The translations under genes and the position numbers were made by a program. Below the pieces are notes generated by a model. The model was not told where the DNA came from. It saw nothing but the letters and a program-made list of their open reading frames with translations, and made no database searches. DNA of 37,896 nucleotides from Anaerolineales bacterium (GTDB taxonomy: Bacteria; Chloroflexota; Anaerolineae; Anaerolineales; UBA6668). Each line of letters starts with the position of its first letter. The stretch's first letter is position 1. Positions 2,987 to 21,932 of the stretch are shown here, piece by piece. The stretch is from the NCBI GenBank assembly GCA_020630225.1, contig JAHDBS010000005.1:1-37896 (forward strand), given 5' to 3'.

Positions 2987-4123
2987 TTATGTGCTGATTG
3001 CGGTTTCTGGGAATGGCAGTGCGACGACTTTGCCAGCATAGCGTTGGCCGTTTTCATCGGTGATGACAATGGGGTGGTTCGGTGTCCAATACCCGCGATC
3101 CAACATGCCTAAGGCAACGTTTTGTTTGAACCGTGGTGACCAGATGGCCGTTGTCACTATCCCTACCTGCATTTCTTCAACCGATATACGCCAAGGTTGG
3201 CGACAAGGAGGACACTTCTGCGTTCCAAATAGAACTCCGCGGATTTGTTGGGTTATTCCAGCTGCCCTGATGCGCTCTAAAGCAGTTTTGCCAATGTAAT
3301 GCAGGTCAGGATCAAATGAGCAGTATTGTTCGAGGCCACATTCCAGTGGATTATTGGCATTGGTCATTTCATTACCTAGTGACAGTAACCCGCCTTCAAC
3401 ACGCTCAATGAGATTAGGACTGCCAGGAGAAATATTGAAAGATTGTCCGGCATTCCAAATGGCATCCCATAGTGCTAGGCCTAAGCTGGGCTTGTCAAGA
3501 TACAACTCAAATCCGCCTTGTTTACTATATCCAGAGCGTGCAATTAGCAATGGGTGGCCTTGAAATTCAAGCCACTTGAAACGGAAGAAACGGATTTCAC
3601 GGACATCAGAGCCAAAGATTGTCTCTAAGACATCGTCAGATTTTGGCCCTTGAACGGCTAATGGCCAAACGTCAGCTTCTTGAACTGCAACATCTAATCC
3701 ATATCCCTGTGCTAAGCCTTTTGCCCAAAGTGCTACATCAGAGTCGGCAATTGAAAGCCAAAACCGATTTTCTGATAACTTGAGAATAATCGGATCGTTG
3801 ATCATGCCAGCGTTTGCGTCAATGAGCGGGGCATAGAAACATTGACCGACTTTCGCTTTTCGCAGGTCACGCGGTGTCATGAGCTGTGTTAGCTTGGCTG
3901 CATCTGGCCCACACACCTCGATTTGGCGCTGACAGCCAACGTCCCAGAGCTGTACATGCTCACGTAAATGCCAATAGTCTTCTTCTACCGTTTTACGAAA
4001 GCCTTTAGGCAAAATTGTACGATTGACAATGGAATAGGCAGATACACCAAGTGCTTCAACGCGGGCTGTATAAGGTGTGCCGCGTTGGCGACGTGAAACT
4101 GTTAGCTTGACTGGAGTTGTCAT
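2987..4123 (-). CDS. GcvT-fold aminomethyltransferase, DmdA-like (THF-dependent demethylase family)
   Basis: Blocks WDV..QRQIEV.GPDA, IRFFRFKWLEFQG, ARSGYSKQGGFELY and PNLIERVEGGLLSLGNEM match, from my memory, the DMSP-demethylase-like clade of the glycine-cleavage T family. Start chosen at ATG 4123, which overlaps the upstream TGA (ATGA, 4120-4123). The track start at 4135 is a TTG. Confidence 0.8.
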   Translation of the reverse strand: MTTPVKLTVSRRQRGTPYTARVEALGVSAYSIVNRTILPKGFRKTVEEDYWHLREHVQLWDVGCQRQIEVCGPDAAKLTQLMTPRDLRKAKVGQCFYAPLIDANAGMINDPIILKLSENRFWLSIADSDVALWAKGLAQGYGLDVAVQEADVWPLAVQGPKSDDVLETIFGSDVREIRFFRFKWLEFQGHPLLIARSGYSKQGGFELYLDKPSLGLALWDAIWNAGQSFNISPGSPNLIERVEGGLLSLGNEMTNANNPLECGLEQYCSFDPDLHYIGKTALERIRAAGITQQIRGVLFGTQKCPPCRQPWRISVEEMQVGIVTTAIWSPRFKQNVALGMLDRGYWTPNHPIVITDENGQRYAGKVVALPFPETAIST

Positions 4124-4467
4124 GCGGACCACCAAATAGAGTAAGAGTGGGGTGCTAACATCATTGGAATGTGGATGCGTTCGTTTGGCGCTTTGATACG
4201 AACCTGAACAGTTACGGCATCAACAATTTGGGAGATATTGGGAATATTTGGCTGTGCTGTGAAATAGTCCGCAGTGTGAAAGACTAATTCACAGCGTGTG
4301 TCAACGGGCACGTTGATTTCCTCTGCAATGCGCCCTTGCTCATCTGAAATGACATTAAACAATTCCACGTCAGCTTGCCCATCTGTTCTTAGATTGCAGG
4401 AAATGCGAATATGCTTGGCATGATCTCCTAAAACCGAGTCTAAGACATGTGAAGATAGCGTTGCCAT
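4120..4467 (-). CDS. Transthyretin-like / 5-hydroxyisourate hydrolase family protein with a non-canonical C-terminus
   Basis: MATLSSHVLDSVLG... N-terminus and ...IHIPMMLAPHSYS... near the C-terminus are the two conserved His-containing blocks of the TTR/HIUase fold. Start is ATG 4467, preceded by AGAGG-N7. The C-terminal tetrapeptide is WWSA rather than the YRGS signature of HIU hydrolases. Confidence 0.75.
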   Translation of the reverse strand: MATLSSHVLDSVLGDHAKHIRISCNLRTDGQADVELFNVISDEQGRIAEEINVPVDTRCELVFHTADYFTAQPNIPNISQIVDAVTVQVRIKAPNERIHIPMMLAPHSYSIWWSA

Positions 4468-7341: not shown

Positions 7342-7514
7342 AGTGTGTCTTGGCAAATGTGTTCTTAGCTACGATGAATACGCAAACGTGCAACTTTTTA
7401 GAATGTAATTTCAAATTGATCGCTTTCGTTTATTGTGTTCGAGTCTGTTTTTCAATAAATTGCCTGCGGCTTAAGCCATCAATTTATGCGATTGACGTGT
7501 GTTATGCTTGCCGT

Positions 7515-8444
7515 ATGGACACCTTAAGCCACACTCCAAATGATCCTGTTGACTACATCGCAGTCACGCATGAAACTTACGATAAGCTGGGCTATGGTTC
7601 ATACCGTTGGGCAAATGAACCTGATCCTGTTGCACTGTCGCCACTACCCAAGCCGCTTGCTGACTGTAAGCTTGCGTTAATTGCCTCAGGCGGTATTTAT
7701 GCTGTCGGTCAAGTCGCGTTCAATCATAAAGATGACTTGTCATTCCGGCGCATTCCGACCACAGTTGCAACGGAAGATTTACGGACCTCCCATTTTGCTT
7801 ATGACATGACTGCAGCTCGCCAAGACCCTAATGTTGTCTTACCGCTTGCGCCTTTGCGCCAATTAGTTGCAGATGGTGAGCTTGGGTCGCTCACTGAACA
7901 TGCACTAACGTTTATGGGAGGCATCTATTCTCAGCGTAAACTGCGTGAACAGCTTATTCCTGAAATTGTTGCCAATGTGCAGGAGATGGGGGCAGACATT
8001 GCATTGCTCGTCCCAGTCTGACCAGTGTGTCATCAGTCCGTGGGGCTGATCTCCAGAGCACTTGAAAAAGTAGGGATTGCGAGTTTGTCAATGACAAGTG
8101 CGCTGTCCATTACACAATCGGCTAACCCAGCGCGGGCTGCTTTCTTAGATTTTCCACTTGGGCACACAGCTGGACGTCCTAATGAACCAACTGAACAAGT
8201 CGAGATCATGCGTCAAGCGCTAGGCCTATTTGAGAGTATTACCGAGTCAGGCACTATAGTCTCTTTGCCATTTATCTGGCCTGGCAATTGGAAACCAGAA
8301 GCGCGTTTGCCAATTGACCATCGCACGCCAAGGTATGACACGCCACAATATCAGACAGATGCGGACCGTGAACGCGCAGTTGTCGCCCATGGTGAACTGC
8401 TTGCTTGCACAGCTTGTGCGCCTCAAGATGTTCCGCGTAGCTAA
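7515..8444 (+). CDS. Glycine/sarcosine/betaine/D-proline reductase component B (GrdB/PrdB) family selenoprotein. The in-frame UGA at 8019-8021 is read as selenocysteine.
   Basis: Track ORFs 7350..8021 and 8025..8444 are in the same frame and separated only by TGA-CCA. The joined peptide ...GADIALLVPV-U-PVCHQSVGLISRALEKVGIASLSM gives the U-x-x-C...E-x-x-G-I core. The upstream block DPNVVLPLAPLRQLVADGELGSL matches the GrdB/PrdB family as I recall it. ATG 7515 (MDTLSH...) is the first plausible start. The upstream part of the track ORF overlaps the divergent promoter. Confidence 0.75.
8025..8061 (+). promoter_or_regulatory. Candidate bacterial SECIS stem-loop directing Sec insertion at UGA 8019-8021
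   Basis: Upper stem AUCAGUCC/GGGCUGAU (8032-8039/8043-8050; 8 pairs including one G-U) closes a G/U-containing apical loop (GUG, 8040-8042). Lower stem is GUGU/GCAC (8025-8028/8058-8061). The apical loop sits about 21 nt from the UGA, within the usual bacterial SECIS window. Confidence 0.45.
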
Positions 8445-8448
8445 GCCT

Positions 8449-9651
8449 CTAAGTCATAGGCATTAGGCGTTGCAACGGTCGCCAAGCTAACAACACTACA
8501 GCCCCAATTGCTGCGCCACCAATGGCTATGGCAGTTGGGGCGCCTGTATATTCTGCAATCCCTCCTAAAAAGACCCCTCCAACCCAGGTGAAGCCAAATA
8601 CTTGGGTGTAAATTCCTTGTACACGCCCCTGCATTTCATCTGTAGTATTGAGTAATACCGACGCAGTTAGCGTGACTTCAAAGGCCATCAGGGCTGCTTG
8701 CATTAGCCCAGCTAAGACTAGTGAAAGTGCTAACCAAGTCGAAAATGAGAACGCTAAAATCCCGGCGGAAGTTAGAATGCCACTGGTAATAACAAGCTTA
8801 GTTTTGTCTTTGTAGTCGCCTAAACTGGCAATGAGGGCTGTAGAAATCAGTGATCCTAAAGCACCTGCACCAGTTAAGTACCCAAAAGCAGAGGCATCTC
8901 CGGCGAGGACGTCACGTGCGACGACCGGCAGCATTGTTAAGTTGGACCAGCCAAGGAAGGACATCAAGAATCCGAGCGTAATCAACCACAACAGAATTTG
9001 GCTTTGCCAAATGTAAGTGATACCTTCCTTAACTGCTGCGCTTACAGCAATTGTTTGAGTGATGGGTTGGAAATTGCCAGCGACAAATAACACGCAGATA
9101 GCGGAGATTACACCAGTACCGACTGCGAAGAAATACCCATATTCAACGCCAAATTGAGCAATAATTACGCCAACCAATGCAGAGGCAGCTACGTTGCCAA
9201 GGTTGAAGCCTAACATTTGCGCGGCAGAGGCGTTGAGGACAGCTTCTTTCTTTACAACTGACACAATCATGGTATTGATTGCTGGCCAGCGCACGGAAAT
9301 GAGTACTCCTTCAAAAAACGCTGCCACAAATACGTGCCATAAAGCAATCTGTCCGGTCAGAATCAGAATAGCTAATACAAGAGCAACAAAGCTGTTGCCA
9401 ATTTCTACCCAAAATAGCGCGGTTTTCCGGTCAACGCGATCTAACATTACGCCAGCGAATGCACCGAGCAGAATTTGGGTTAGCCCTCGTACGGCTGGGG
9501 CTGCGCCGACCCAAAAGGGCGAGTCTGTAAGTGTAAGGACAAGCCAACCGCGCGCAACAAACACCGCAATGAGGCGAGCAGATCCGAATACAGAATTGAA
9601 CCAAAGCCAGCGATATGCTGGTAATTTCAACGTCTCTACTAGATTACGCAT
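8449..9651 (-). CDS. MFS transporter (12-TM type)
   Basis: 400-aa highly hydrophobic ORF with repeated TM segments and the MFS loop motif G..LDR.DRK (GVMLDRVDRKT) after TM2. Confidence 0.85.
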   Translation of the reverse strand: MRNLVETLKLPAYRWLWFNSVFGSARLIAVFVARGWLVLTLTDSPFWVGAAPAVRGLTQILLGAFAGVMLDRVDRKTALFWVEIGNSFVALVLAILILTGQIALWHVFVAAFFEGVLISVRWPAINTMIVSVVKKEAVLNASAAQMLGFNLGNVAASALVGVIIAQFGVEYGYFFAVGTGVISAICVLFVAGNFQPITQTIAVSAAVKEGITYIWQSQILLWLITLGFLMSFLGWSNLTMLPVVARDVLAGDASAFGYLTGAGALGSLISTALIASLGDYKDKTKLVITSGILTSAGILAFSFSTWLALSLVLAGLMQAALMAFEVTLTASVLLNTTDEMQGRVQGIYTQVFGFTWVGGVFLGGIAEYTGAPTAIAIGGAAIGAVVLLAWRPLQRLMPMT

Positions 9652-9778: not shown

Positions 9779-11824
9779 CTACGCTGGTTCCAGTTGAATT
9801 TGAATTAATTCGTTGACAGGAATATGACAGCGGATCTTATGATTGACTGCACCTTCAGGTGTTTGCCAAGCTGGCATTTCTTCGTCACAAATACTGCCGA
9901 CCCGAACTGGACAGCGGCGCTGGAATGGACAGCCTTGGGCCGGTGGTGAAGATTCTGGCGTATCGCCTCCAATCAACTTTGGTGCAACGTCGGGGTTTGG
10001 TTCAAGCGCTGCGCCAAGTAAAGTCTCTGTATATGGATGGAATGGCGCTGAGTAAATTTCTTCAACTGTTCCCACTTCACACAAGCGGCCTTGGTAGAGC
10101 ACGGCAACTCGATCTGCAAAGGCGCGCACAACGGCTAAGTCATGCGTAATGAAGATGTATGTCGTGCCGTGTTCTTTTTGCAGGTCTGCTAATAGGTCGA
10201 GTACTGCAGCTTGGACGGAAACATCTAGCGCTGATGTGACTTCGTCACACAAGACGACTTCTGGGTCAGCAGCAAAAGCTCGCGCAACAGCAACACGCTG
10301 CTTTTCGCCGCCAGACATTTGACCCGGGTAGCGATTGAGATAACGTTCGCTCAGACGCACGCGCTGCAACAGCTCTTTCATTCGTGCTTCTCGTTCGCTG
10401 GCAGGCATGCTGGGATAGTAAAGTTTTAGTGGTTGATCCAACAACTCTTTGACCGATTGGCGTGGATTGAGAGATGCATCTGGATTTTGAAAAATCATTT
10501 GGATGCGTTTGCGTAAGTCCATCGGACGATCATCTACGCTAACGGTGAGGTCAAAGTCCTCAAATTGGATAGCGCCGCCTTTAGACGGCAATAATCCAGA
10601 AATGGCGCGAACAATGGTTGACTTACCGCTACCGCTTTCTCCCACAAGCGCCACTGTTTCACCACGTTTGACGTTTAGGTTGACCCCAGAAACAGTTAAT
10701 GGCGGCTCTTTTTTGCCAAGTAATCGATCTACAAAATCTGGGTTGAAATAGGTGATGTCGACGCCATTGAGATCTAAAGCTGTCTCTTCAGAAATTGTCT
10801 TAACAATTTGTTGTACACCGGCTTTGAGATCTTGAGAGAAATCTTGCTTGCTAATTTCTTCTGCGTGATGACAGCGCACCAAGTGCGATTTTCCATCAGT
10901 TTGAATGTCATTTAAACCAGGGCTTTCTGTACGACACTGATCAGTCGCAAAGCTACAGCGTGGCTCAAAATGGCAGCCGGATAACGTTCCCGGTAATGGC
11001 GGCTGCCCTGGCATCGACTTTGGAATACCTGACAAGGTGAGGCGTGGAATTGATTCCAGCAGACCACGTGCATAAGGATGCGATGGAGAACGGAAGAGCT
11101 GCGAAACATTGGCATCTTCAACAACTTCACCGGCATACATGACTGCAACCCGATCGCTCACGCGAGCAATTACGCCAAGGTCATGACTGATGTACATCAT
11201 TGCTGTGCCAAGGTCATCAACAATGGCACGCATTAGGTCAAGAATATGCGCTTGGGTGGTGACGTCTAATCCTGTGGTGGGTTCGTCCAACACCAACATG
11301 TCTGGCTCACCCGCGAGAGCCATTGCCACTGCTACCCGTTGTTGCTGCCCCCCTGAAAGTTCATGGGGATAGCGTGAGACCATCTCCTCGGGCGAAGGTA
11401 GCCTGACTTGTGTAAATAGTTCGACAACGCGGTCCTTGGCAGCTTGACCAGTAATGTTGGCGTTTAGTTCAAGTGCTTCCTCAATTTGCTTGCCACATCG
11501 TAAGGTCGGTGTCAGCGACTGGCCTGCATTTTGAGGAATAAGCGCAATACGTTTACCGCGTAAGGCTTCTAACTCGCGCGGAGAGAGCGAGAACATATTG
11601 ATGCCATCGTAATTAACACTGCCGCTAAGGATCTTGCTTCCAGAGCGCAGGAAGCCCATCATCGCTTGGCCAAGCGTGCTTTTACCACAGCCAGACTCGC
11701 CGACAAGCCCCAGCGTCTCGCCTTTTTTGATAGTCAGGTTTACGTTACGCAGGACGTGAACTAAGCGGCCATATTTGGTGTGATAGCCAATGGTAAGGTC
11801 TTTGATATCAACGAGATTACTCAC
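9779..11824 (-). CDS. ABC transporter ATP-binding protein, fused tandem DppD/DppF-type (oligopeptide/dipeptide/nickel family)
   Basis: Two complete ATPase modules are present: Walker A GESGCGKST and GESGSGKST; signatures LSGGQQQR and MSGGEKQR; Walker B LVLDEPT and VLCDEVT. Each is followed by the Cys-rich Opp-type C-terminal segment. The GTG start overlaps the upstream stop (GTGA, 11821-11824). Confidence 0.9.
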   Translation of the reverse strand: MSNLVDIKDLTIGYHTKYGRLVHVLRNVNLTIKKGETLGLVGESGCGKSTLGQAMMGFLRSGSKILSGSVNYDGINMFSLSPRELEALRGKRIALIPQNAGQSLTPTLRCGKQIEEALELNANITGQAAKDRVVELFTQVRLPSPEEMVSRYPHELSGGQQQRVAVAMALAGEPDMLVLDEPTTGLDVTTQAHILDLMRAIVDDLGTAMMYISHDLGVIARVSDRVAVMYAGEVVEDANVSQLFRSPSHPYARGLLESIPRLTLSGIPKSMPGQPPLPGTLSGCHFEPRCSFATDQCRTESPGLNDIQTDGKSHLVRCHHAEEISKQDFSQDLKAGVQQIVKTISEETALDLNGVDITYFNPDFVDRLLGKKEPPLTVSGVNLNVKRGETVALVGESGSGKSTIVRAISGLLPSKGGAIQFEDFDLTVSVDDRPMDLRKRIQMIFQNPDASLNPRQSVKELLDQPLKLYYPSMPASEREARMKELLQRVRLSERYLNRYPGQMSGGEKQRVAVARAFAADPEVVLCDEVTSALDVSVQAAVLDLLADLQKEHGTTYIFITHDLAVVRAFADRVAVLYQGRLCEVGTVEEIYSAPFHPYTETLLGAALEPNPDVAPKLIGGDTPESSPPAQGCPFQRRCPVRVGSICDEEMPAWQTPEGAVNHKIRCHIPVNELIQIQLEPA

Positions 11825-12729
11825 AATGGTGCTCCTTGGCTGCGATCTAGCCCCAGCGCTTTAGCAAGTGCATCAGCAAACAAGTTGATGCCAATAATCA
11901 ATGAACTCAACATAATGATCGGGCCAAACGTCGCCCATGGTTGGAGGGCCATGATTTGACGATTTTCAGCAACCATTCGTCCCCAGTCAACAGCCGGTGG
12001 GGATACCCCAAACCCTAAGAATGACAATGAGGTAAATGCGAGTAGCATCCAAGACCAGCGCATTGCGCCTTCGACTAGCATGACATCCATTACATTGGGT
12101 AGCAGTTCCCGTAGCACAACTGTCCGTTTGCTTTCCCCACGGGCGCGTGCTGCTTGGACAAATTCACGAGTAACGTAATCATGTGTAGCAGCCCGCGCGA
12201 CACGAATGATCGGAATGCCGTAGAAGAAACCAAAGGTAAGGGCTTGTACCCAAGGTTCAGTGCCGACAACAGACACGATCAATAGAAGGAATAGCAGCCA
12301 GGGAATCGCAAGAAATGCATCCACTAGCCGCATGATGATGTCATCAGCACGGCCTCCGACAAAGCCCAGCAAAATCCCGACAAAACCACCCCAAGCCAAT
12401 GCCATAGAGGTCCCAATCAGGCTAACTGTAATCAGAATGCGGCCTCCGACGAGCGAGCGAGAGAATACGTCACGGCCAGTGTTGTCTGTGCCCATCCAAT
12501 GCTCTGCACTTGGCATTTCTCGGCGCACAGTGGCGTCCATTAGCTGTGGATCAACTGGTGTAATCATGGGGCCAATCAGTACCAGAACAAAGTGCATGAT
12601 GATAAGACCAATGCCAATCATGCCGCCACGCGAACGTTTGAGGTTGTCCCAAACTTCACCAGCCGGCGATTTAGGTTTGTCTGGCGTTGTGTCTTTTATG
12701 TTTGAGTAAGAAGGGTTCGCAACAGTCAT
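11821..12729 (-). CDS. ABC transporter permease, DppC/OppC-like
   Basis: 302-aa polytopic membrane ORF with a BPD-transporter EAA-like loop (ARARGESKRTVVLRELLPN). An AAGGTG RBS precedes ATG 12729. Confidence 0.9.
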   Translation of the reverse strand: MTVANPSYSNIKDTTPDKPKSPAGEVWDNLKRSRGGMIGIGLIIMHFVLVLIGPMITPVDPQLMDATVRREMPSAEHWMGTDNTGRDVFSRSLVGGRILITVSLIGTSMALAWGGFVGILLGFVGGRADDIIMRLVDAFLAIPWLLFLLLIVSVVGTEPWVQALTFGFFYGIPIIRVARAATHDYVTREFVQAARARGESKRTVVLRELLPNVMDVMLVEGAMRWSWMLLAFTSLSFLGFGVSPPAVDWGRMVAENRQIMALQPWATFGPIIMLSSLIIGINLFADALAKALGLDRSQGAPL

Positions 12730-12742
12730 GTCAATTCACCTT

Positions 12743-13699
12743 TTATCCTTGCGCAATTGCTGTGCGTAACCGTGGGTTGAGCAAGAGCGTTGCGATGTCT
12801 GCTGCGAGATTTACCAAGATGTAAATTGTTGCGAGAATGATTGCAATGCCTTGAACTAGGGCGAGGTCACGGTCGGAGATTCCGTTGATCATTAGTGTGC
12901 CAATCCCAGGATAGTTGAACACTGCCTCGATGATGACAACCCCACCTAGCAGCCAAGCAATGGTGAGCGCCACAATATTAATGGTGGGCAGCATTGCATT
13001 TGGTAAGGCGTGGCGCCAAACAATGCGCCATGCAGGCACGCCTTTAAGACGCGCCATGTTGATGTAATCGCTCACCATTACATCGATCATGCTGGTACGA
13101 ACAAGACGCAAAATGTGGGCCATCATCACTAAAGTTAGCGTAATGATTGGCAACCAAATGTTTGGAATAAGCTCAGTAATTTTGGCGTCAGTAGCTACAG
13201 TTGTAATAGCGGGGAACCACTTTAGCCGGATTGCAAAAACGAAAATTAGAATGGTGCCTGTTACAAATTCGGGCAGCGTCATTGCAAAAATTGAAATAGT
13301 AGAAATGATGATGTCTGGCAAGCGGTCTCGCATGAGCCCAGTCATTACACCAAGAAAGATTGCCAGCGGAATGCCTATGAGCGAGGATGCAACGGCAAGC
13401 ACAACAGTGTTGCGCAATCGATTGCCAATGAGCTCTGTCACAGGCTTACGGCGGACGAGCGAGTCGCCAAGATCGCCTTGAATAACACCGCCAAACCAAT
13501 CAAAGTAGCGGGTAACAGCAGGGCGATTTAGCCCAAATTCTTCTTGTAAGTTTGCAAGACTTTCTGGCGTGGCATCACGCCCTAAATAAGCGGTGGCCAT
13601 ATCGCCCGGCAGTGCTTCTACTGCCAGAAAAACGATAATTGACACGATGATGAGCGTAAGAATCGCAAGCATCAACCGCCTTAGTATGAGTCCAAACAT
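12743..13699 (-). CDS. ABC transporter permease, DppB/OppB-like
   Basis: MFGLILRRLMLAILTLIIVSIIVF... is the typical DppB N-terminus, and an EAA loop is present (MARLKGVPAWRIVWRHALPNA). Start is ATG 13699 preceded by GGAGG-N4. The track start at 13768 adds an implausible extension. Confidence 0.9.
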   Translation of the reverse strand: MFGLILRRLMLAILTLIIVSIIVFLAVEALPGDMATAYLGRDATPESLANLQEEFGLNRPAVTRYFDWFGGVIQGDLGDSLVRRKPVTELIGNRLRNTVVLAVASSLIGIPLAIFLGVMTGLMRDRLPDIIISTISIFAMTLPEFVTGTILIFVFAIRLKWFPAITTVATDAKITELIPNIWLPIITLTLVMMAHILRLVRTSMIDVMVSDYINMARLKGVPAWRIVWRHALPNAMLPTINIVALTIAWLLGGVVIIEAVFNYPGIGTLMINGISDRDLALVQGIAIILATIYILVNLAADIATLLLNPRLRTAIAQG

Positions 13700-13754
13700 A
13701 GTTCCTCCAAATGTCCTGTCTTGTTTGGCGAGTGAGTAGACCAGAGCTAAGTGC

Positions 13755-13769
13755 AGTGAGCTGCTCACT
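13755..13769. promoter_or_regulatory. Variant LacI-type operator (AGTGAGC-T-GCTCACT) upstream of the permease/ATPase genes
   Basis: It has the same GTGAGC/GCTCAC half-sites as the two perfect palindromes at 14888 and 15045, but with one extra central base. It lies 56 nt upstream of the permease start codon. Confidence 0.5.
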
Positions 13770-13850
13770 TTTCTTTGATATGAAGTTGTGTAACAAAATC
13801 GACCAGTGTGTGGCTAGGTCAACAGCAGCCTAGGCTAAGTAGTCCTTAAC

Positions 13851-14879
13851 TTAGTGTGACAAGGCTGCGATTTGGCGCGACTTGGTTGAGCCACGCAGCA
13901 CCAGTTCTATATCCAATAAGGTGGGTGGATAAATGATGTCTGGTGTTTTTATCATTTCTAAAAGCTGTTCCATCGCAAGCTGTCCAATTTCGAAGCTTGG
14001 GATGCGTAAGGTAGTTAGTGCAGGAAAAACATGTGCTGCTACAGAGATGTCGTCATAACCAATGACAGAAATATCATCTGGCACGTTTAGACCCATGTCA
14101 CGACAGGCGTGCATTGCTGCAATGGCCATCATGTCGTTATACGCAACAATCGCGGTTAGGTCTGGATTACGCGTCACGAGTTGCTTCGTCGTGCGGTGAG
14201 CAGCTTCCAAGTTGGTGTTGCTTGCTTGCATGATCCAATTTGAATTGACTTCAAGCCCAAGCGATTGAAACCCTTTTTTATACCCTTTGACGTGGAAAAT
14301 ATTTTCTTGGTCGCCAGGCCGTGTGAGAAGCCCCACCTTACGATGACCAGACCCGATCAAATATTCAATTAGGGATTGGGTCGCACGCTCAATATCGGTA
14401 GTAATAGATGTTAAGTTTGGCGCACTCATGTTGCGGTGGACAACAACAATAGGTAGATTTTTGTCTGCAAAACTTGCAACTGTCTGCAAGTCCAAGTGTG
14501 TGCTTGACAGAACAATGCCATCTACATTTTCTGAAATTAGCGCATTTATGGTTTCAATTTCAGCATCGCGCACATAGTTTGTGGTGCGAATAAACACATT
14601 GTAGCCAACTGTTTGCGCCATTGTTTCCAAGCCGCGAATAACTTCGGAATGAGCCGGATTCAAGATATTGCCAATAACTAATCCAATAGTCTTTGATTGA
14701 TTGCTCGCCATCCCTCGAGCTAATCGGCTGGGGCGGTAGCCAAGTTCCTCAATAGTCGCAAGAACGCGTTGGCGCGTTTTCTCGCTAATCCCATTCATAT
14801 TATTAATGGCACGCGAAACGGTTTGGCGTGACACACCAGCATATTTCGCGACATCATCAATCGTAATATTTTTCTTCAT
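13851..14879 (-). CDS. LacI/GalR-family transcriptional regulator
   Basis: The N-terminal HTH MKKNITIDDVAKYAGVSRQTVSRAINN is followed by a periplasmic-binding-protein-like sugar/ligand domain. Start is ATG 14879. The track GTG 14900 lies inside the operator palindrome. Confidence 0.9.
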   Translation of the reverse strand: MKKNITIDDVAKYAGVSRQTVSRAINNMNGISEKTRQRVLATIEELGYRPSRLARGMASNQSKTIGLVIGNILNPAHSEVIRGLETMAQTVGYNVFIRTTNYVRDAEIETINALISENVDGIVLSSTHLDLQTVASFADKNLPIVVVHRNMSAPNLTSITTDIERATQSLIEYLIGSGHRKVGLLTRPGDQENIFHVKGYKKGFQSLGLEVNSNWIMQASNTNLEAAHRTTKQLVTRNPDLTAIVAYNDMMAIAAMHACRDMGLNVPDDISVIGYDDISVAAHVFPALTTLRIPSFEIGQLAMEQLLEMIKTPDIIYPPTLLDIELVLRGSTKSRQIAALSH

Positions 14880-14887
14880 AAAGTTTG

Positions 14888-14901
14888 CGTGAGCGCTCAC
14901 G
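14888..14901. promoter_or_regulatory. LacI-type operator, perfect 14-bp palindrome CGTGAGCGCTCACG (autoregulatory position)
   Basis: Perfect palindrome 9 nt upstream of the lacI ATG and immediately downstream of a minus-strand promoter-like TTGCAA-17-TAAACT. An identical copy is at 15045-15058. Confidence 0.6.
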
Positions 14902-14902
14902 T

Positions 14903-14931
14903 AGTTTAGTTGCGAACAGATGTTATTGCAA
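14903..14931 (-). promoter_or_regulatory. Putative sigma70-type promoter of the lacI (and possibly permease) transcript
   Basis: Read on the minus strand: TTGCAA (14931-14926), 17-nt spacer, TAAACT (14908-14903). The operator palindrome starts 1 nt after the -10 element. Confidence 0.45.
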
Positions 14932-15012
14932 GTGAAAATCGTTTTTGCTTAGACTTTTGGCTGTTTTTTTTATTTTTGCAGTCGTATTGTTATAAATTGC
15001 TGCTGATTCGTG

Positions 15013-15042
15013 TTGACAAAACGTATTTCTGCACTTTATAGT
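15013..15042 (+). promoter_or_regulatory. Putative sigma70-type promoter of the SBP-Rieske-aminomethyltransferase operon
   Basis: TTGACA (15013-15018), 18-nt spacer, TATAGT (15037-15042). The operator palindrome begins 2 nt downstream. Confidence 0.5.
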
Positions 15043-15044
15043 TG

Positions 15045-15058
15045 CGTGAGCGCTCACG
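15045..15058. promoter_or_regulatory. LacI-type operator, perfect 14-bp palindrome CGTGAGCGCTCACG over the predicted transcription start of the SBP operon
   Basis: Identical to the copy at 14888-14901, including the 5' flank TTG (TTGCGTGAGCGCTCACG in both). It is positioned directly after the -10 element. Confidence 0.65.
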
Positions 15059-15157
15059 AGTTATATCTACTTTATAACAGTGATGCGTCCTCATGAGAAT
15101 GGTCTCGCTATTCTCGCCACACTTTCGTTTTAGAAAATTAGTTTGGAGAAAAGAAGC

Positions 15158-16786
15158 ATGAAGAAAGTTTCCCTTTTAGTCATCTTGGGTGCTTTGCTAA
15201 TGGCTGCTCTCGCTGCATGTGCAGCGCCAGAGCCAGAAGTAATTATTCAAGAAGTTGAAGTCACAACTGTTGTCGAAGTTGAAAAAGAAGTCGAAGTTGT
15301 TGTAACTGAAGTGGTTGAAGTTGAGAAAGAAGTTGAGAAAGTTGTTGAGGTTGAAAAAGAACTAAGCAACCGTGGGATTTTCCGCATTCCACACGATGGC
15401 GCCTGGGGTGGGACTGAAAATGTAGATCCTGTCGATCCTGCACGTTTTTACCCAACTATCACCATGATTTACGATGGTCTCGTGCGCCAAGGGGCTAGCG
15501 GTAGCCCAGCCCCAAGTCTTGCTAAAGATTGGAGCGCGAACGAAACTGCGGATGTGTGGACCTTCAACTTGCGCGAAGGTGTTATGTTCCATGATGGTTC
15601 CCCAATGACCTCTGCCGATGTAGCTTACTCAGTGGTTCACTGGCAAACAGAACCTTCAACTATTGCACCAGTATTGGCAATTGTTGAAAGTGTTGACACA
15701 CCGGATGATTACACTGTAGTCATGAATTTGAACCAAGCTCACGCTGACTTCCCACTGCTGATTATGGATTACCGCGCACGTGTTATTCCTGCAGACAGTG
15801 CTGAAACCATTCGTGACACTGGTATGGGTACCGGTCCATTCAAATTAGAAAAATTGGATGTAGAAGGGACCACTATTCTGACTGCAAATGACGACTATTG
15901 GGGTGGTCCTCCAGGGATGGCTGGGGTAGAAGTTCACCATATTCCAGATTCAGAAGCACAATTGCAAGCATTCTTGGCTAGCCAAGTTGACTGGTTAGAT
16001 ATGACCCTTGCACAAGCTGAATTGGCAGAAGCCACCGGCGGCTTTGACATCATTTCCTTCCCTGCTGGCGGTTGGTCAGGTCTGATTATGCGGACAGACA
16101 TTCCACCATTCGACAACCCAGATTTGCGTCGTGCAATGCGTGTTGTTGCTGATCGCCAAGCAATGGTTGACATTGCTCTTTCAGGGGCAGGGATTGTTGC
16201 CTGTGATACACCAGTCAAGCCAGACGATCAATATCGCTTCAATCCAGACTGCTCACCAAATCCAGAATTGGCAACTGAATTGTTAGCATCTGCTGGCTAC
16301 AGTGGCGAAACGCTGACCTTGCACATTTCAGACGTATGTCCAGACTGGACGCCTCTAGCTGAAATCTATCAACAACAATTGGCCGCTGTTGGCGTCAATT
16401 TGGATATCAATGTCGTGCCATCTGATGGGTACTGGACAGATGCTTGGATGGTTGAACCATTCTCAGCAACCTGTTGGGGTGAACGTCAAGCGGACCAAAT
16501 CTTGAATGAAGCCTATCGCTCTGGTGGGTCTTGGAACGAAACTTACTTCAACAATGAAGAGTTCGATGGCCTCTTAGATGCAGCGCGCCAAGAACTGGAC
16601 TTCGATGCACGTAAGGCCTTGTACCAAGGTGCACAAGAAATCTTGTGGAACGAAGGTGGGGCGCTTATTCCTTACCATGGTACAAACTTCCGTGGTACGA
16701 CCCAATGTGTAATTGGGGTGCCTTCAGTTTACGAATTCCAAGTGAACTGGGCAGATATCTCTGTTACGCCTGGCTGTGCGAACTAG
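15158..16786 (+). CDS. ABC transporter substrate-binding lipoprotein, family 5 (DppA/OppA/NikA-like)
   Basis: ATG 15158 is preceded by GGAGAA. The signal peptide has a lipobox LAAC (Cys codon 15218-15220), followed by a V/E-rich linker and then an SBP_bac_5-like body (LVRQG.., NDDYWGG.P). Confidence 0.9.
   Translation: MKKVSLLVILGALLMAALAACAAPEPEVIIQEVEVTTVVEVEKEVEVVVTEVVEVEKEVEKVVEVEKELSNRGIFRIPHDGAWGGTENVDPVDPARFYPTITMIYDGLVRQGASGSPAPSLAKDWSANETADVWTFNLREGVMFHDGSPMTSADVAYSVVHWQTEPSTIAPVLAIVESVDTPDDYTVVMNLNQAHADFPLLIMDYRARVIPADSAETIRDTGMGTGPFKLEKLDVEGTTILTANDDYWGGPPGMAGVEVHHIPDSEAQLQAFLASQVDWLDMTLAQAELAEATGGFDIISFPAGGWSGLIMRTDIPPFDNPDLRRAMRVVADRQAMVDIALSGAGIVACDTPVKPDDQYRFNPDCSPNPELATELLASAGYSGETLTLHISDVCPDWTPLAEIYQQQLAAVGVNLDINVVPSDGYWTDAWMVEPFSATCWGERQADQILNEAYRSGGSWNETYFNNEEFDGLLDAARQELDFDARKALYQGAQEILWNEGGALIPYHGTNFRGTTQCVIGVPSVYEFQVNWADISVTPGCAN
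15251..15361 (+). repeat. Intragenic low-complexity tandem repeat encoding a (V/E/K/T)-only linker
   Basis: The peptide EVEVTTVVEVEKEVEVVVTEVVEVEKEVEKVVEVEKE is encoded by reiterated GTTGAAGTTGAGAAAGAA-like units directly after the lipobox. Confidence 0.8.
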
Positions 16787-16816
16787 CTTTGTGACGTAGC
16801 TATCTAGTAACCGAAA

Positions 16817-16853
16817 GGGCAGTCACTCGTATGAGCGGCTGCCCTTTTTTATT
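16817..16853 (+). terminator. Strong intrinsic terminator / intra-operon attenuator after the SBP gene
   Basis: GGGCAGTCACTC-GTAT-GAGCGGCTGCCC pairs 11 of 12 positions (16817-16844) and is followed by TTTTTTATT. It starts 31 nt after the SBP stop and ends only about 10 nt before the Rieske gene ATG. Confidence 0.8.
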
Positions 16854-16863
16854 CAACTTTACT

Positions 16864-17988
16864 ATGACGATTGAATTCAATCCTTTGTTATCTAATCCTG
16901 CTGAGTCGCCAACCTTACCTGGACATTTTTATTCCGACCCGCAGGTGTTGAAACTTGAGAAAGAGACTATTTTTTATAAGCATTGGCAACTGGTTGCGCA
17001 TGTGTCGCAGCTGCCAAATGTGGGTAGTTATGTAACTTCTCAAATTGTGGATCAGGATGTCATTGTCCTGCGTGGACAGTCGGGTGCGATAAAAGCTTTT
17101 TATAACGTATGTCAGCATCGGGCGCATGAATTGTTGAGTGGGCGTGGGGAGGTCAAATCGCGTATTGTGTGCCCGTATCATGCGTGGACCTATGACTTGA
17201 ATGGGTCGCTCACAACAGCCCGGCATTGTGATCACATGCCTAACTTTGCTAAACAAGACTACGGACTAGTTCCAGTTCGCACTGAAGTTGCGTTGGGGTT
17301 TATCTTCGTCAATTTAGATGACAATGCCCCTAGTCTGCAGAGCGTTGCTGGAGAGATGTTCGCGGATATGCAAGAGCAATGTCCATGGATTACCGAAATG
17401 GTTGTGGACCCAGTCTTGTCGGAAGACAGCTGGGAAGGCGCACCGCTAAATGCAAATTGGAAGGTCCTCGCAGAGAACTGTTTGGAGTGCTACCACTGTG
17501 CGGTGGCGCACCCTGCGTTTGTGGATTTAGTGGATCTTGATGATTACGTTTGCCAACCGCATGACAATTGGCTGCGTAGTTATGGCAAGCTCCGCAAGTA
17601 CAAGAACAAAGCCTACGATGTTGAGCCAGACGAGCCGTCACAAAATGCTATCTTTTGGCATCTATGGCCAAATGTGGAGTTTGGTGTTGTTCCTGGCGAA
17701 GCGGCCATTGGTGGCTTTCGGTTTTATCCAGCAAGTTCGCACGTTACAAAGATGACCTCCATCATGTTGACTAAGCCAGGTGAAAGTATCAAAGAAGATC
17801 GCATTAACTATCGCTGGAATGTTCTTTGGGCAGAGGATGAGGCTATCTGTCAATCTGTGCATCGGGGGTTACAATCGAAAGGTTATCGACAAGGCCGCTT
17901 TGTTGTTGACCCGACATATGAGGGCATCAGCGAGCACGCGGTGCATTATTTTCAACTCAAATATGCAAAGGCGCTTGGCTTGAAATAG
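16864..17988 (+). CDS. Rieske [2Fe-2S] non-heme-iron oxygenase, alpha/oxygenase subunit (GbcA/CntA/Stc2/VanA-like demethylating monooxygenase class)
   Basis: The Rieske motif is CQHRAH-x16-CPYHAW. The mononuclear Fe site is ENCLECYHCAVAHP (H-x4-H). The N-terminal LPGHFYSDPQVLKLEKETIFYKHWQLVAH is typical of the class. ATG 16864 is the only start upstream of that block and outside the terminator. Confidence 0.85.
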   Translation: MTIEFNPLLSNPAESPTLPGHFYSDPQVLKLEKETIFYKHWQLVAHVSQLPNVGSYVTSQIVDQDVIVLRGQSGAIKAFYNVCQHRAHELLSGRGEVKSRIVCPYHAWTYDLNGSLTTARHCDHMPNFAKQDYGLVPVRTEVALGFIFVNLDDNAPSLQSVAGEMFADMQEQCPWITEMVVDPVLSEDSWEGAPLNANWKVLAENCLECYHCAVAHPAFVDLVDLDDYVCQPHDNWLRSYGKLRKYKNKAYDVEPDEPSQNAIFWHLWPNVEFGVVPGEAAIGGFRFYPASSHVTKMTSIMLTKPGESIKEDRINYRWNVLWAEDEAICQSVHRGLQSKGYRQGRFVVDPTYEGISEHAVHYFQLKYAKALGLK

Positions 17989-18031
17989 TCATCAGCGCTA
18001 ACGCCTTATTACTAAATTTAGGCAGTATCCA

Positions 18032-19156
18032 ATGAAGCATCCGATCCCAAAGATTTCACTGACTGCACGTATTCGCAAGTCGCCTTACTACGACGCAACG
18101 GTTAAGCACGGCATTAAGGTGCTGTCAGTCTATAACCACATGTATATGCCATCGATTTATGAAGATCTGATGACAGACTATGAGAACCTAACCAAACGCG
18201 TCACACTTTGGGATGTTGCGGTAGAACGCCAAGTTGAGATTGTTGGGCCAGACGCCGCAGCATTTACACAATATCTAACGTGTCGTGATATCAGCAAATG
18301 TAAAGTGGGGCAGTGTATGTACGTGCCCATTGTAGATGACCAAGGTGGGCTGCTAAATGATCCGATTATGCTCAAGTTAGCTGAGGATCGATTTTGGCTT
18401 TCTTTGGCTGACTATGACATTTTACTCTGGGCGAAAGGTCTCAATGTTCATATGAAACTGGATGTTGAAATTTTCGAGCCAGATGTATCGCCACTTGCAG
18501 TTCAGGGACCGAACTCAACTGCACTTATGGTTGACTTGTTTGGGGATTGGATAAATGAGTTGAAATTCTTTTGGTTTCGGGAAGCCGAACTAAATGGAAT
18601 TCCAATGGTCATTGCGCGTTCAGGGTGGAGCAAGCAGGGCGGCTTTGAACTTTACTTGCAAGACGGATCACGCGGTGTTGAGTTATGGGAAACGGTTTGG
18701 GCTGCTGGTGAAAAATACGGTATTGCGCCTGGCGCACCGCATGGGATTGAACGTATCGAAAGCGGATTGCTCAACTATGGGCATGACCTATTGCCAGATA
18801 TGAACCCGTGGGAAGCGGGCTTAGGGCAGTATGTGCATTTAGACATGGTAGCCAACTTTGTTGCTAAAGACGCGTTGAAAGCGATTAAGGCAGACGGAAT
18901 CAAGCGTCAGTTAGTTGGCGTAATTATTGACGGTGATCCATTGCCAGTGAATGATCAAAACTGGAACATTCCGGGCTACTCAATGGCTGAAGCACGTCTG
19001 ACAAGTTTTACTTGGTCGCCGCGCTATCAACAAAATGTAGGGATGGCGCTGTTGCCAATTGCGATGACAACAGTGGGCACACGGTTAACCGTAAACACGC
19101 CTCACGGTCATTTGCTGGCGACCGTGGTTGGACTGCCATTTTCAAAAACACTGTAG
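18032..19156 (+). CDS. GcvT-fold aminomethyltransferase, DmdA-like, paralog of 2987..4123
   Basis: ARIRKSPYYDATVKHGIKVLSVYNHMYMPSIY, WDVAVERQVEIVGPDAA, ARSGWSKQGGFELY and HGIERIESGLLNYGHD share the same conserved blocks as the first paralog and, as I recall it, DmdA. Confidence 0.8.
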   Translation: MKHPIPKISLTARIRKSPYYDATVKHGIKVLSVYNHMYMPSIYEDLMTDYENLTKRVTLWDVAVERQVEIVGPDAAAFTQYLTCRDISKCKVGQCMYVPIVDDQGGLLNDPIMLKLAEDRFWLSLADYDILLWAKGLNVHMKLDVEIFEPDVSPLAVQGPNSTALMVDLFGDWINELKFFWFREAELNGIPMVIARSGWSKQGGFELYLQDGSRGVELWETVWAAGEKYGIAPGAPHGIERIESGLLNYGHDLLPDMNPWEAGLGQYVHLDMVANFVAKDALKAIKADGIKRQLVGVIIDGDPLPVNDQNWNIPGYSMAEARLTSFTWSPRYQQNVGMALLPIAMTTVGTRLTVNTPHGHLLATVVGLPFSKTL

Positions 19157-19303: not shown

Positions 19304-20869
19304 TTAGTTAGCCCAACGCTGATTTCCCGGACGCATTGCGCTTGGGTCTAAGACAATTGGAAATTTAGCCCGAATGGCGGCATCTGTTGTGGCATCAACA
19401 TGGCTTGGGTAGTGTGTCCGCATTATGGTTTTGACTTTTTCTTGAGCACGTTCCAGTATGCTAGTTGCGCCTTCGGCTTCCCATACCCCAAGCCCATTGC
19501 GGTCAGCTAGCTCTGGATAAAGGTAATCCGTTTCCATGCGTTCAAGAGTCTGGGGTTGGCCTAAGAAGTGGCCTGGGCCTAGGACGGCCTCACGAATTAC
19601 ATCAATTGACAGGGTTTCTTCGTTGACTTCAAGGCCTGCGAGGACACGTTGGGCGGCGCCTAACATATCATTGTCAATTACAAGTGCCTCTAGACTACAG
19701 CCCAACAAACTTCCGAGCATTCCTGCTGACTCCAACACACGGTTGGCTCCAGCTAACCCCGCAGTCACAGCGGTAATCCCTTTTTCATATCCGGCCTGGG
19801 CATCAGGATGTTTAGAATCAGTCATGCAGGCAGCAACGCTTGTAGGTAAGTCATAGAAGCGGCCAATTTGTGCACAGCAGGCCATGACAAGCGCCTCTTC
19901 TCCACTGCCTCCGGTAAATGCGCCAGTGCGTAAGTCTGACACAAACGGCCAAATTGCAAACGTCATTGGGCAACCGGGATTGATAATGTTGACTAGTGCT
20001 AAGCAGGCTAGCCCCTCTGCCGTGACCTGCGCTAATGAGCCAGCTAAGGCTGCTGGGGCTGTCGCACCAGCTTGGGGCGCAATCGCAATGTCATTGATGA
20101 GCCCCAACTTGCTTGTTTCAACTAAGACTTTGAGATTTTCTTCCCCAAATTTGAGTGGCGACACAATAGGGCAGCCTCCAAACGAGAGGAACGGCTTCTT
20201 TGCAAACCGGCCTTCACCACCAAGCACCATATCGAACAACTCAATCGCTGGCGCAATGTTTTCAACGTCGTTGAAGGTCATTTCACATGGCTTCTGCGTA
20301 GAGACAGCAGCAACGTAAGCAACGTTTATGTCATGAACGTATAAATCGGTGAGTTCGGTTGGGACGACCGTTTGCCCAAACTGATGTAAATTGTCGAGGG
20401 TATCAATTAGGCGCCCGCAGTCATATAAGTCTGTAATTGTGGACGCGCGAAAGGTACGGTTGACAGAGTCGTACATTCGAACGGCTTCACCACTGGATGC
20501 ATAATTGACGTGATAGCCACCAACGTGCACATCGGCAAATTCAGGACTGCGGCTGTAGATCGTATATTCCCGCGCAGCGCAGGCGATCATGTCTTCTACG
20601 AGTTGGCGTGGATAGCAGAGCCGACCATGCTCATTGAGAAAGCAGCCAGCAGCCGTTGCAATTTCAATTACTTCGTCTGTTGGGTCAGCAATTCCGATTG
20701 TTTCTAAAATTTCGAGCGCAGCCTGATGAATTTGCTGTAAATCTGTTTCGGAAAGAGGTTTGTATTGGCCGCCCAATAAGCCAGCTTTTACTGGTCGTTT
20801 TGAAACTGCGGCGGCGCGCATTGCGACCCGCGTTGCTCTTGCATTTTGTTGACGGCGTTTTCGTTTCAC
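19304..20869 (-). CDS. MttB-superfamily methyltransferase, non-pyrrolysine member (quaternary-amine:corrinoid methyltransferase-like, MtgB-type)
   Basis: The Arg/Lys-rich N-terminus is followed by GLLGGQYKPLSETDLQQIHQAALEILETIGI, and the central block is FGGCPIVSPLKF...APQAGATAPAALAGSLAQ. The ORF is uninterrupted, with no in-frame TAG. Start chosen at GTG 20869 with AAGGA-N5, 17 nt after the upstream stop. The track start at 21016 overlaps the preceding gene. Confidence 0.85.
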   Translation of the reverse strand: MKRKRRQQNARATRVAMRAAAVSKRPVKAGLLGGQYKPLSETDLQQIHQAALEILETIGIADPTDEVIEIATAAGCFLNEHGRLCYPRQLVEDMIACAAREYTIYSRSPEFADVHVGGYHVNYASSGEAVRMYDSVNRTFRASTITDLYDCGRLIDTLDNLHQFGQTVVPTELTDLYVHDINVAYVAAVSTQKPCEMTFNDVENIAPAIELFDMVLGGEGRFAKKPFLSFGGCPIVSPLKFGEENLKVLVETSKLGLINDIAIAPQAGATAPAALAGSLAQVTAEGLACLALVNIINPGCPMTFAIWPFVSDLRTGAFTGGSGEEALVMACCAQIGRFYDLPTSVAACMTDSKHPDAQAGYEKGITAVTAGLAGANRVLESAGMLGSLLGCSLEALVIDNDMLGAAQRVLAGLEVNEETLSIDVIREAVLGPGHFLGQPQTLERMETDYLYPELADRNGLGVWEAEGATSILERAQEKVKTIMRTHYPSHVDATTDAAIRAKFPIVLDPSAMRPGNQRWAN

Positions 20870-20885
20870 GGGTTTCCTTAGGTCG

Positions 20886-21932
20886 TTATTGTGTTTTTGC
20901 GTATTGTAGGGCGACAAAGGCGAAGGCTTTTGCAGCTTCGCCAAGGTTTGCCATACGCTTGTCTTTTGTTGCCCCCGAAAGATAGCGCCCATAAAGCTGT
21001 TGCAAAATGACAGCAAGCTTGCAGTAGGCTAAGCCCTGATACCAGTTGATCCTTGAGAGATCATAGCCAGAGTATTTCGCATATAACTCAATCAGGACAT
21101 CTTTTTCAGGGAAATTGCCATGCAGTACAACCGGCAGTTCAATTCCCTTTAGATGATTGTCTGGCCAGTAACTTAGGCTGACTCCAAAATCGACTAATGG
21201 ATCGCCTATTGTGCACATGTCCCAGTCCAGCATTGTTGTAATTTCATCTGGATTGTTTGGCTGAAATTGGCAGTTATCGAACTTGATGTCGTTGTGAACG
21301 AGGGCTATTGCTTGAGCCTTGGGAATGTCTTTGCCTAGAATTTCAAGCGCCTTGTACATTGCAGGTGTTGGGTCTGTCTCTACGAGCGACCAGCGTTTTT
21401 CTGCACCAGCCAATTGGCGCTCTACAAAGCCAGCTGGCTTCCCTAGATCTAATAGATCGGCTTCCGCTACATCAACTGTATGAAACGCAGCTTCCGTTCG
21501 CATGAGTGCATCGGTCATGCGATATTCGACGTTGTCTAAATCTTGGAATTCTTTTGGAACCCGATAGCGGGCCACAATGCCTTTGCGGCGTTCCATAATC
21601 ACAAAATTAGCCCCGATGATGCTTTCATCAGCACAAAAGTGAAATGCTTTTGGTGCAGCTGGGAAAAATGGATTGAGCTTAGACAGTACACGATATTCCC
21701 GTTTCATATCGTGTGCGCCGGGCGCAATCTTTCCGAATGGCGGACGACGCAAGACGAGCTCGCGATCCTCGAAACGCAATAGATAAGTCAGATTGGCATG
21801 ACCGCCGAAAAACTGCTCTACCTCCATGGGACCCGAGAGGTCTGGCATTGCTGCTTGGAGATATGTTTCAAGGGTGGTCCAATCTAGGTCTTCACCGGGT
21901 CGAATGCTTGCTGTGTCCTTCATATAAGTCAT
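20886..21932 (-). CDS. Phosphotransferase (APH / ACAD10-11 N-terminal kinase-like) family protein
   Basis: The nucleotide-binding N-lobe is FFGGHANLTYLLRF...LVLRRPP. The catalytic loop LVHNDIKFDNCQF and DWDMCTIGDPLVDF (DxD) are present. The start is uncertain (ATG 21932 or 21923). The upstream part of the track ORF has no support. Confidence 0.8.
   Translation of the reverse strand: MTYMKDTASIRPGEDLDWTTLETYLQAAMPDLSGPMEVEQFFGGHANLTYLLRFEDRELVLRRPPFGKIAPGAHDMKREYRVLSKLNPFFPAAPKAFHFCADESIIGANFVIMERRKGIVARYRVPKEFQDLDNVEYRMTDALMRTEAAFHTVDVAEADLLDLGKPAGFVERQLAGAEKRWSLVETDPTPAMYKALEILGKDIPKAQAIALVHNDIKFDNCQFQPNNPDEITTMLDWDMCTIGDPLVDFGVSLSYWPDNHLKGIELPVVLHGNFPEKDVLIELYAKYSGYDLSRINWYQGLAYCKLAVILQQLYGRYLSGATKDKRMANLGEAAKAFAFVALQYAKTQ

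Follow-up and report, generated by a model that had tools for sequence, protein, structure and literature searches.

A stand-alone PrdB-like gene with an in-frame UGA very probably encodes a selenoprotein in an Anaerolineales genome

The window analyzed here is a stretch of 37,896 nucleotides from contig JAHDBS010000005.1 of an Anaerolineales bacterium (Chloroflexota; assembly GCA_020630225.1). Judged from its sequence and from those of its relatives, the interval 7515-8444 on the plus strand is very probably one gene encoding a selenocysteine (Sec)-containing protein related to PrdB, the B subunit of D-proline reductase. It opens with an ATG at 7515-7517, ends with a TAA at 8442-8444 and is interrupted solely by a TGA at 8019-8021. 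The read-through product has 309 residues (310 codons with the stop counted) and reads EMGADIALLVPV-U-PVCHQSVGLISRALEKVGIASLSMT around the UGA, also quoted as LLVPV-U-PVCHQSVGLISRALEKVGI. An earlier reading of the sequence alone had proposed a GrdB/PrdB-family selenoprotein gene split by an in-frame UGA at this position, and the frame, the Cys/TGA column of homologues, a hairpin downstream and the family hidden Markov models (HMMs) agree with that proposal. The features of the locus are as follows.

7357..7514, no strand: divergent intergenic region, A+T-rich, 158 bp, presumed promoter region by its position, shared with the gene for a flavin mononucleotide (FMN)-dependent dehydrogenase
7515..8444, plus strand: complete coding sequence of the predicted PrdB-like selenoprotein, 309 residues with Sec at residue 169 (from the frame, the family HMMs, the homologue alignment and the syntenic orthologue L008)
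8019..8021, plus strand: in-frame UGA, predicted to be read as selenocysteine, U169 (from a TGA in the same column in 87 loci and Cys in homologues)
8019..8030, plus strand: U-P-V-C redox motif (U169, C172), then H173-Q174 (from the homologue alignment)
8032..8050, plus strand: hairpin resembling a selenocysteine insertion sequence (SECIS), with 5' arm 8032-8039, loop G-U-G 8040-8042 and 3' arm 8043-8050
8406..8417, plus strand: C-terminal C298-T-A-C301 (CxxC) in a family-specific tail (read from the sequence)
8442..8444, plus strand: true stop TAA, 4 nt from the stop of a convergent major facilitator superfamily (MFS) transporter gene (8449..9651, minus strand)

The two open reading frames (ORFs) found at this locus, 7350..8021 and 8025..8444, lie in the same reading frame, as had been reported. 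The GTG at 8025 is preceded by TGCATTGCTCGTCCCAGTCTGACCA, with no purine-rich Shine-Dalgarno-like run 5' of it, in line with the earlier view that it is not an independent start. A mechanical scan of the window for two long ORFs split by a single TGA returned one credible case, 7515-8444; the further candidates, with TGA at 4956, 11957 and 25720, lie antisense to large genes and were discarded as artefacts. A genetic code in which UGA is a sense codon was ruled out, because TGA is the stop of 6 other genes among the 30 large ORFs of the window.

Among 5.8 billion proteins searched for homologues, 116 matched. In the full-length homologues (290-314 residues, 42-51% identity), Cys occupies the TGA column in 16 of 17 cases, within the motif LLVP-x-C-P-x-C-H-Q, so that the Cys or Sec of homologues falls where the sequence-only reading had placed it. 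The closest matches (55-68% identity) are about 170 residues long, and every one of them ends exactly at LLVPV; in their contigs the terminating codon is TGA, after which PVCHQ continues in frame to a full-length protein. Altogether, about 90 of the 116 database homologues are ORFs of ~170 residues truncated at the Sec codon. When one genome per GTDB species was scanned, 428 relatives emerged, and the UGA column was examined in the best 80: all 80 have TGA at the equivalent column and continue in frame with PVCHQ. The column is also kept in 7 metagenome loci, which brings the related loci to 87, and its retention in the 80 best relatives and these 7 loci excludes a chance TGA. The TGA-bearing relatives span at least six phyla, with hosts among the Acidimicrobiia (including Candidatus Spongiisociaceae), Anaerolineales, Entotheonella, Deltaproteobacteria/Deferrimicrobia, Gammaproteobacteria, Verrucomicrobiota and Binataceae.

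Searched with a profile, 1.84 billion cluster representatives yielded 247 clusters at E <= 1e-30, among which are N-terminal fragments that stop at the Sec column and C-terminal fragments that begin just past it; Cys forms make up 63 of the top 150 cluster representatives. For the second half, gene callers choose inconsistent internal ATGs 70-170 nt downstream in the relatives, which indicates that relatives do not initiate the two halves separately. Public gene calls for the PrdB-like clade are systematically misannotated. In relatives, the C-terminal half is called as a product of its own, 82-117 residues long and starting at an arbitrary internal ATG.

Family assignment was performed by HMM scans of the protein with Cys in place of U. 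The Pfam family GRDB (PF07355) matched with an E-value of 6.6e-10 and 39.2 bits, above its gathering cut-off of 22 bits, with residues 37-165 aligned to model positions 212-344 of 347. An alignment to this model had been suggested as a check of the Sec column; the family match stood, whereas the column could not be read from it because the model ends 2-3 residues before that point. The NCBIfam models span the column, with U169 at about position 148 of the PrdB model TIGR04483, and it is this model that gave the best match (E 5.9e-46, 156.8 bits, residues 36-254), the GrdH, GrdF and GrdB models matching more weakly. The score is about half the equivalog cut-off of 300 bits, and the score on TIGR01918, 43.9 bits, is below the subfamily cut-off of 65.45 bits; the protein is thus a relative of PrdB and not PrdB itself. 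Cys-form relatives score 107-155 bits on TIGR04483. When the halves were scanned separately, the N-terminal one mapped to positions 16-144 and the C-terminal one to positions 150-233 of the same model, collinearly, as adjoining pieces of one domain, and the earlier statement that neither half is a complete domain is borne out. In the PrdB-like protein P0209, residues 255-314 gave a weak, sub-threshold Pfam match (E 9e-4, 19.8 bits, cut-off 25) to the 'UGSC family', a further selenoprotein family abundant in the sea; the PrdB-like and UGSC families are perhaps distant relatives.

Synteny with the window extends over at least 14 genes, at 75-95% protein identity, in the best genome match, L008 (Anaerolineales MAG-93, JAHDIM010000014.1), whose orthologue shares the ATG start of the window gene and retains the UGA. 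Between the two, the ratio of nonsynonymous to synonymous substitution rates (dN/dS) is 0.06 upstream of the UGA and 0.13 downstream, at dS values of 1.8 and 1.3 that are near saturation. By this comparison both halves are under purifying selection, and the low dN/dS on both sides, together with the kept UGA, rules out a pseudogene and shows translation of the downstream half in frame.

Structure 3' of the UGA, for which the sequence-only reading had suggested a search, takes the form of a conserved SECIS-like hairpin at 8032-8050, whose first stem base is 10 nt past the UGA. From an alignment of 78 distinct sequences, taken from the UGA onward, RNAalifold predicted a single hairpin that pairs columns 14-20 with 26-32, corresponding to window positions 8032-8038 and 8044-8050. 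The family consensus has 7 bp and a 5-nt loop, and an extra C-G pair gives the window hairpin 8 bp and a G-U-G loop. Across the 78 sequences, 97.3% of the hairpin cells are paired, a share that falls to 3-44% on shifting the 3' arm by 1-3 columns. Pair 15-31, which links the third position of a His codon with the first of an Ile/Val codon, is U-A in 42 sequences and C-G in 22; pair 19-27 is U-G or U-A, and synonymous positions within the stem are invariant (CAG for Gln, CTG for Leu). Since the close set contains little covariation, a divergent set of published Sargasso Sea genes, from the family itself and from sister subfamilies, was added from the supplement of PMC1088965. These relatives form the hairpin in the same register with a different sequence, keeping 5-7 of the 7 pairs: pairs 15-31, 17-29, 18-28, 19-27 and 20-26 change yet stay paired, and G22-U23 is kept in the loop. 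In three Cys-form genes (TGT or TGC) the hairpin is missing, with 3-4 of the 7 pairs present in its register. The stem-encoded residues vary in Cys forms and are nearly fixed, as HQSVGL(I/V), in Sec forms.

The SECIS of Escherichia coli fdhF is a short stem-loop located about 10-11 nt 3' of the UGA, within the coding sequence, with G-U in its apical loop. The window hairpin resembles it in its 10-nt spacing and in the G-U of the loop, and differs from it in sequence and in having no evident bulged U; SelB binding is here predicted. An Rfam scan gave nothing but noise at 7900-8200, and to our knowledge Rfam contains no bacterial SECIS model.

The U-x-x-C motif described from the sequence is indeed U169-P-V-C172, and in the homologue alignment P170, C172, H173 and Q174 are either invariant or conserved to 97% or more. 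The structure was modelled with AlphaFold2 on the Cys homologue P0002, using 26 family sequences. The model is a single compact alpha/beta domain (predicted local distance difference test 91.3, predicted template modelling score 0.92), in which the Sec-equivalent Cys167 lies between strand 160-164 and helix 168-183, at the helix N-terminus. The junction of a strand with the N-terminus of a helix is the usual place of a redox-active CxxC or UxxC. Sequence searches of the PDB with the single protein and with a profile found no match, and a Foldseek comparison of the P0002 model against the PDB returned nothing significant (best E 4e-3, TM ~0.3); the likenesses to DJ-1 and periplasmic-binding-protein folds that it suggested were too weak to use. 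A C-terminal CxxC such as that at C298-C301 (A-C-x-x-C within the last 40 residues) is carried by 47 of 82 Sec-form relatives and so is not universal; from the sequence, C298 and C301 are a possible resolving or shuttle dithiol.

The genomic context was assessed by Pfam scans of all 30 large ORFs in the window, and it agrees with the earlier description of a gene divergent from an operon of an FMN-dependent dehydrogenase and a thiamine diphosphate (ThDP) enzyme and convergent with an MFS gene. Upstream and divergent are genes for the FMN-dependent dehydrogenase, the ThDP enzyme and two further proteins, one transthyretin-like and one GcvT-like; downstream, the convergent MFS transporter is followed by an Opp-type ATP-binding cassette (ABC) system, LacI, a Rieske oxygenase, another GcvT-like protein and an MttB homologue. 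A consensus promoter scan gave no site in 7357..7514, and the counts from a promoter and terminator scan of the window were at chance level overall. The Pfam scans of the window detected no PrdA/GrdE (PF09338-type), GrdA, PrdC, PrdH, GrdC/GrdD, thioredoxin or thioredoxin reductase, in accord with the claim that grdA, grdE, prdA and trx genes are absent nearby. Likewise, no PrdA/GrdE-type partner, prdC or prdH was found in six annotated contexts of relatives or among the immediate neighbours of about 75 related loci, and grdA and thioredoxin genes are also missing near those ~75 loci.

The PrdB-like gene is a true stand-alone. Within 7 kb on either side, the commonest neighbour gene is present in at most 22 of about 80 loci. 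The commonest neighbours are an enoyl-CoA hydratase (possibly MenB-like), an MTS-family methyltransferase, an AAA ATPase and a phosphoenolpyruvate carboxylase, and they look like lineage-specific synteny within Acidimicrobiia. The enoyl-CoA hydratase lies immediately downstream in 15 of 75 loci, which are close relatives (~80% identical to one another), and the methyltransferase immediately upstream in 15 of 70. The MFS transporter is not read as a partner, because it is adjacent in only about 10-12 loci.

The class to which the gene belongs is known from marine surveys. In the Sargasso Sea survey (Zhang, Fomenko and Gladyshev, 2005), 'Proline reductase PrdB' (UXXC) ranked third in abundance among the selenoprotein families, with 42 genes (PMC1088965), and under pfam07355 the Global Ocean Sampling survey (Zhang and Gladyshev, 2008) counted 235 genes in the Sec form and 110 in the Cys form (PMC2398784); the window gene is therefore an additional member, from Chloroflexota. 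Clear members of the clade are present in the supplementary sequences; one of them, the Sargasso Sea sequence AACY01190956, is 46% identical to the window protein throughout its C-terminal half (E 8e-39, residues 170-298) and reads u-PVCHQSVGLI...SALSITQS...PLGHTAG...TPQYQT. With this marine family the window protein shares UxxC, pfam07355 and the hairpin register, and the region of identity to AACY01190956 takes in the TPQYQT tail, which canonical PrdB lacks. The published marine set mixes subfamilies (uPVCHQ, uPFCTRAV and others), and the window gene differs from it in lying in an Anaerolineales genome with a gene context of its own. Both surveys took the proline reductase function from the name (PMC1088965, PMC2398784); 'PrdA' occurs 0 times in the 2005 text, and the missing pyruvoyl partner is discussed neither there (PMC1088965) nor in PMC2398784.

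Comparison with characterized reductases places the window protein close to PrdB and apart from it in several respects. The PrdB family motif is listed as UxxC (PMC13188914), and in C. difficile PrdB the Sec is residue 151, its replacement in U151C giving an inactive protein (PMC11229817). The window protein is homologous to PrdB of C. difficile and Acetoanaerobium (Clostridium) sticklandii over about 220 residues, with Sec at the equivalent position in UxxC. In contrast to canonical PrdB, it has 309 residues versus ~241, with ~35 extra N-terminal and ~55 extra C-terminal residues; no prdA, prdC, prdH, prdDEF or prdR lies near its gene, natural Cys forms occur in its stand-alone clade, and the hosts are not Stickland fermenters. 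Its residues 37-216 match residues 211-397 of GrdH, that is, the C-terminal catalytic half, including the Sec region, of the GrdB/GrdF/GrdH proteins (~435 residues), whereas their N-terminal ~200 residues are lacking; and, unlike glycine/sarcosine/betaine reductase loci, the locus has no grdA, grdE, grdC or grdD nearby. Genomes of sponge symbionts from several phyla are reported to be enriched in SelA and SelB (PMC5649159).

We infer SelB-dependent Sec insertion at the UGA 8019-8021: the hairpin at 8032-8050 would recruit SelB with Sec-tRNA(Sec), and the ribosome would decode the UGA as Sec. The product would be a single-domain alpha/beta protein of the GrdB/PrdB superfamily with its catalytic centre, U169-P-V-C172, where a strand meets a helix. 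On the model of PrdB and GrdB, its selenol would attack an electrophilic carbon of the substrate, C172 would resolve the adduct as a selenenyl-sulfide, and a thiol system would re-reduce it. The ~55-residue C-terminal tail, often with a CxxC, could replace the partner subunit or carry reducing equivalents.

Several observations weigh against this interpretation. No selA, selB, selC or selD was found in the 37.9-kb window, nor any tRNA, and no sel genes were found in the related loci; a tRNA-Sec search of 60 related loci returned none, and a tblastn query with E. coli SelD matched none of the loci. In the close Sec-form set, one stem pair of the hairpin covaries and four pairs never vary, part of the stem conservation is coding constraint on HQSVGL(I/V), and the single-sequence fold energy is no better than that of shuffles (z = -0.68), so that the case for the hairpin rests on the comparison between sequences. 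The structure model is that of the 51%-identical Cys homologue P0002 and not of the window protein. Finally, PrdB and GrdB, the basis of the proposed catalytic cycle, act together with a pyruvoyl subunit, of which there is no sign here. Among the loci searched for tRNAs, ARAGORN called an 87-nt 'tRNA-Met' at 9282-9368 (plus strand) of L031, a locus of an Acidimicrobiia genome, with the selenoprotein gene following about 630 nt downstream; the call has no support from Rfam and is probably a false positive.

If the UGA were a real stop, the locus would encode a 168-residue N-terminal protein, and the downstream half would be a separate gene or untranslated. Gene callers have annotated almost all public records in this way and UGA is a normal stop in the window, yet we consider this very improbable: no ribosome-binding site precedes GTG 8025 and no internal start is conserved among relatives, the two halves align side by side on a single-domain model, AlphaFold2 models the homologue as one compact domain, the downstream half has a dN/dS of 0.13 in the same frame, and the Cys forms are single uninterrupted proteins. 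The lack of sel genes in the 37.9-kb window would fit recoding of the UGA to Cys or Trp by a near-cognate tRNA, with the hairpin acting only as a read-through stimulator. We know of no such mechanism for the PrdB-like family, and this explanation appears extremely improbable given the exchange of Cys for UGA at a UxxC redox site, the SECIS-like spacing and G-U loop of the hairpin, and the experimentally proven Sec at the equivalent site of the family (PMC11229817). As Cys forms exist and one base change turns TGT or TGC into TGA, a pseudogene created by a recent nonsense mutation of a Cys codon, or an assembly error, might also be imagined; it is refuted in practice by the comparative data, in which the same TGA occurs in 87 independent loci across phyla and is kept at dS > 1.2 against L008, with strong purifying selection on either side, and we give it next to no credence.

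The selenoprotein that we favour might still be a genuine B subunit of D-proline (or glycine/betaine-type) reductase, with its pyruvoyl partner PrdA/GrdE and its electron donor encoded elsewhere. The best HMM is that of PrdB (TIGR04483), UxxC stands at the PrdB Sec position, and the selenoproteome literature files the family as 'proline reductase PrdB'. We nevertheless judge a canonical proline reductase subunit unlikely, because the score reaches 156.8 bits versus the equivalog 300, extra N- and C-terminal segments are present, no prdA or grdE is adjacent, and Cys forms are common, yet the U151C variant of C. difficile PrdB is inactive (PMC11229817). Moreover, a PF09338-type partner, PrdC and PrdH are missing from the window, the six annotated contexts and the neighbours of ~75 loci alike, and the hosts are largely aerobic marine or sponge-associated lineages.

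The window protein belongs to a stand-alone 'PrdB' clade that is common in marine and sponge-associated bacteria. This clade may well constitute a PrdA-independent Sec/Cys (UxxC) enzyme with its own chemistry, distinct from proline reductase and perhaps engaged in acyl-adenylate or acyl-CoA metabolism, a proposal that we advance tentatively. The Cys-form proteins P0119 and P0121 (805 and 514 residues) are fused to AMP-binding (adenylating) enzymes. At the Cys-form locus L090 (3556-6073) an AMP-binding gene begins 8 nt past the PrdB-like gene, at L089 a family III CoA-transferase gene overlaps the start of the Cys-form gene by 4 nt, and another Cys form follows acyl-CoA dehydrogenase fragments. 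The AMP-binding and CoA-transferase neighbours may be functional links to acyl activation. Glycine-cleavage genes also occur within a few kb of PrdB-like genes in a few cases, namely GcvP at an Acidimicrobiia Sec-form locus (L001, 16964-19801, minus strand) and GcvP, GcvH and GcvT at a Betaproteobacteria Cys-form locus (L088, 3337-7799, minus strand); with the two GcvT-like genes of the window, this may be coincidence. None of the AMP-binding, C-terminal CxxC and glycine-cleavage leads is consistent enough for a functional claim.

With corrected gene calls, the protein inventories of Chloroflexota, Acidimicrobiia, Entotheonella and other symbiont genomes would differ, and the host genomes would be marked as selenium users. 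The family is among the most abundant surface-ocean selenoproteins in published surveys, yet its name comes from an anaerobic Stickland enzyme, and the obligatory partner of that enzyme has no gene nearby. The window gene itself provides an annotation fix, one more example and a clear description of a SECIS, without a new principle or system.

Elsewhere in the window, a gene cluster at 2987-4135 (minus strand) and 9779-21016 encodes two GcvT-like folate-binding proteins, a Rieske oxygenase, a non-pyrrolysine (non-Pyl) MttB methyltransferase, an Opp-type ABC transporter with its binding protein and a LacI regulator. It has a syntenic counterpart in Anaerolineales MAG-93, and its composition suggests the breakdown of methylated amines or compatible solutes. 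Within its MttB-family ORF (19304..21016, minus strand), Rfam reports PYLIS_3, the pyrrolysine insertion sequence of mttB, at 19726-19825 (minus strand) with 47.8 bits versus a gathering score of 38. The ORF is uninterrupted and has no in-frame TAG, so that the match looks like coding homology in a non-Pyl MttB homologue rather than a working PYLIS. A 260-residue ORF at 22764-23546 (minus strand) lacks any Pfam match and shares 86 nt with the next ORF, and a 975-residue protein encoded at 31999-34926 (minus strand) has DUF6055, in its C-terminal third, as its sole match. At 24588-24950 (minus strand), a gene for a 120-residue protein of the 23S rRNA intervening-sequence family (PF05635), with a weak bAvd-like match, stands alone between an aldehyde dehydrogenase gene and a glyoxalase-family gene.

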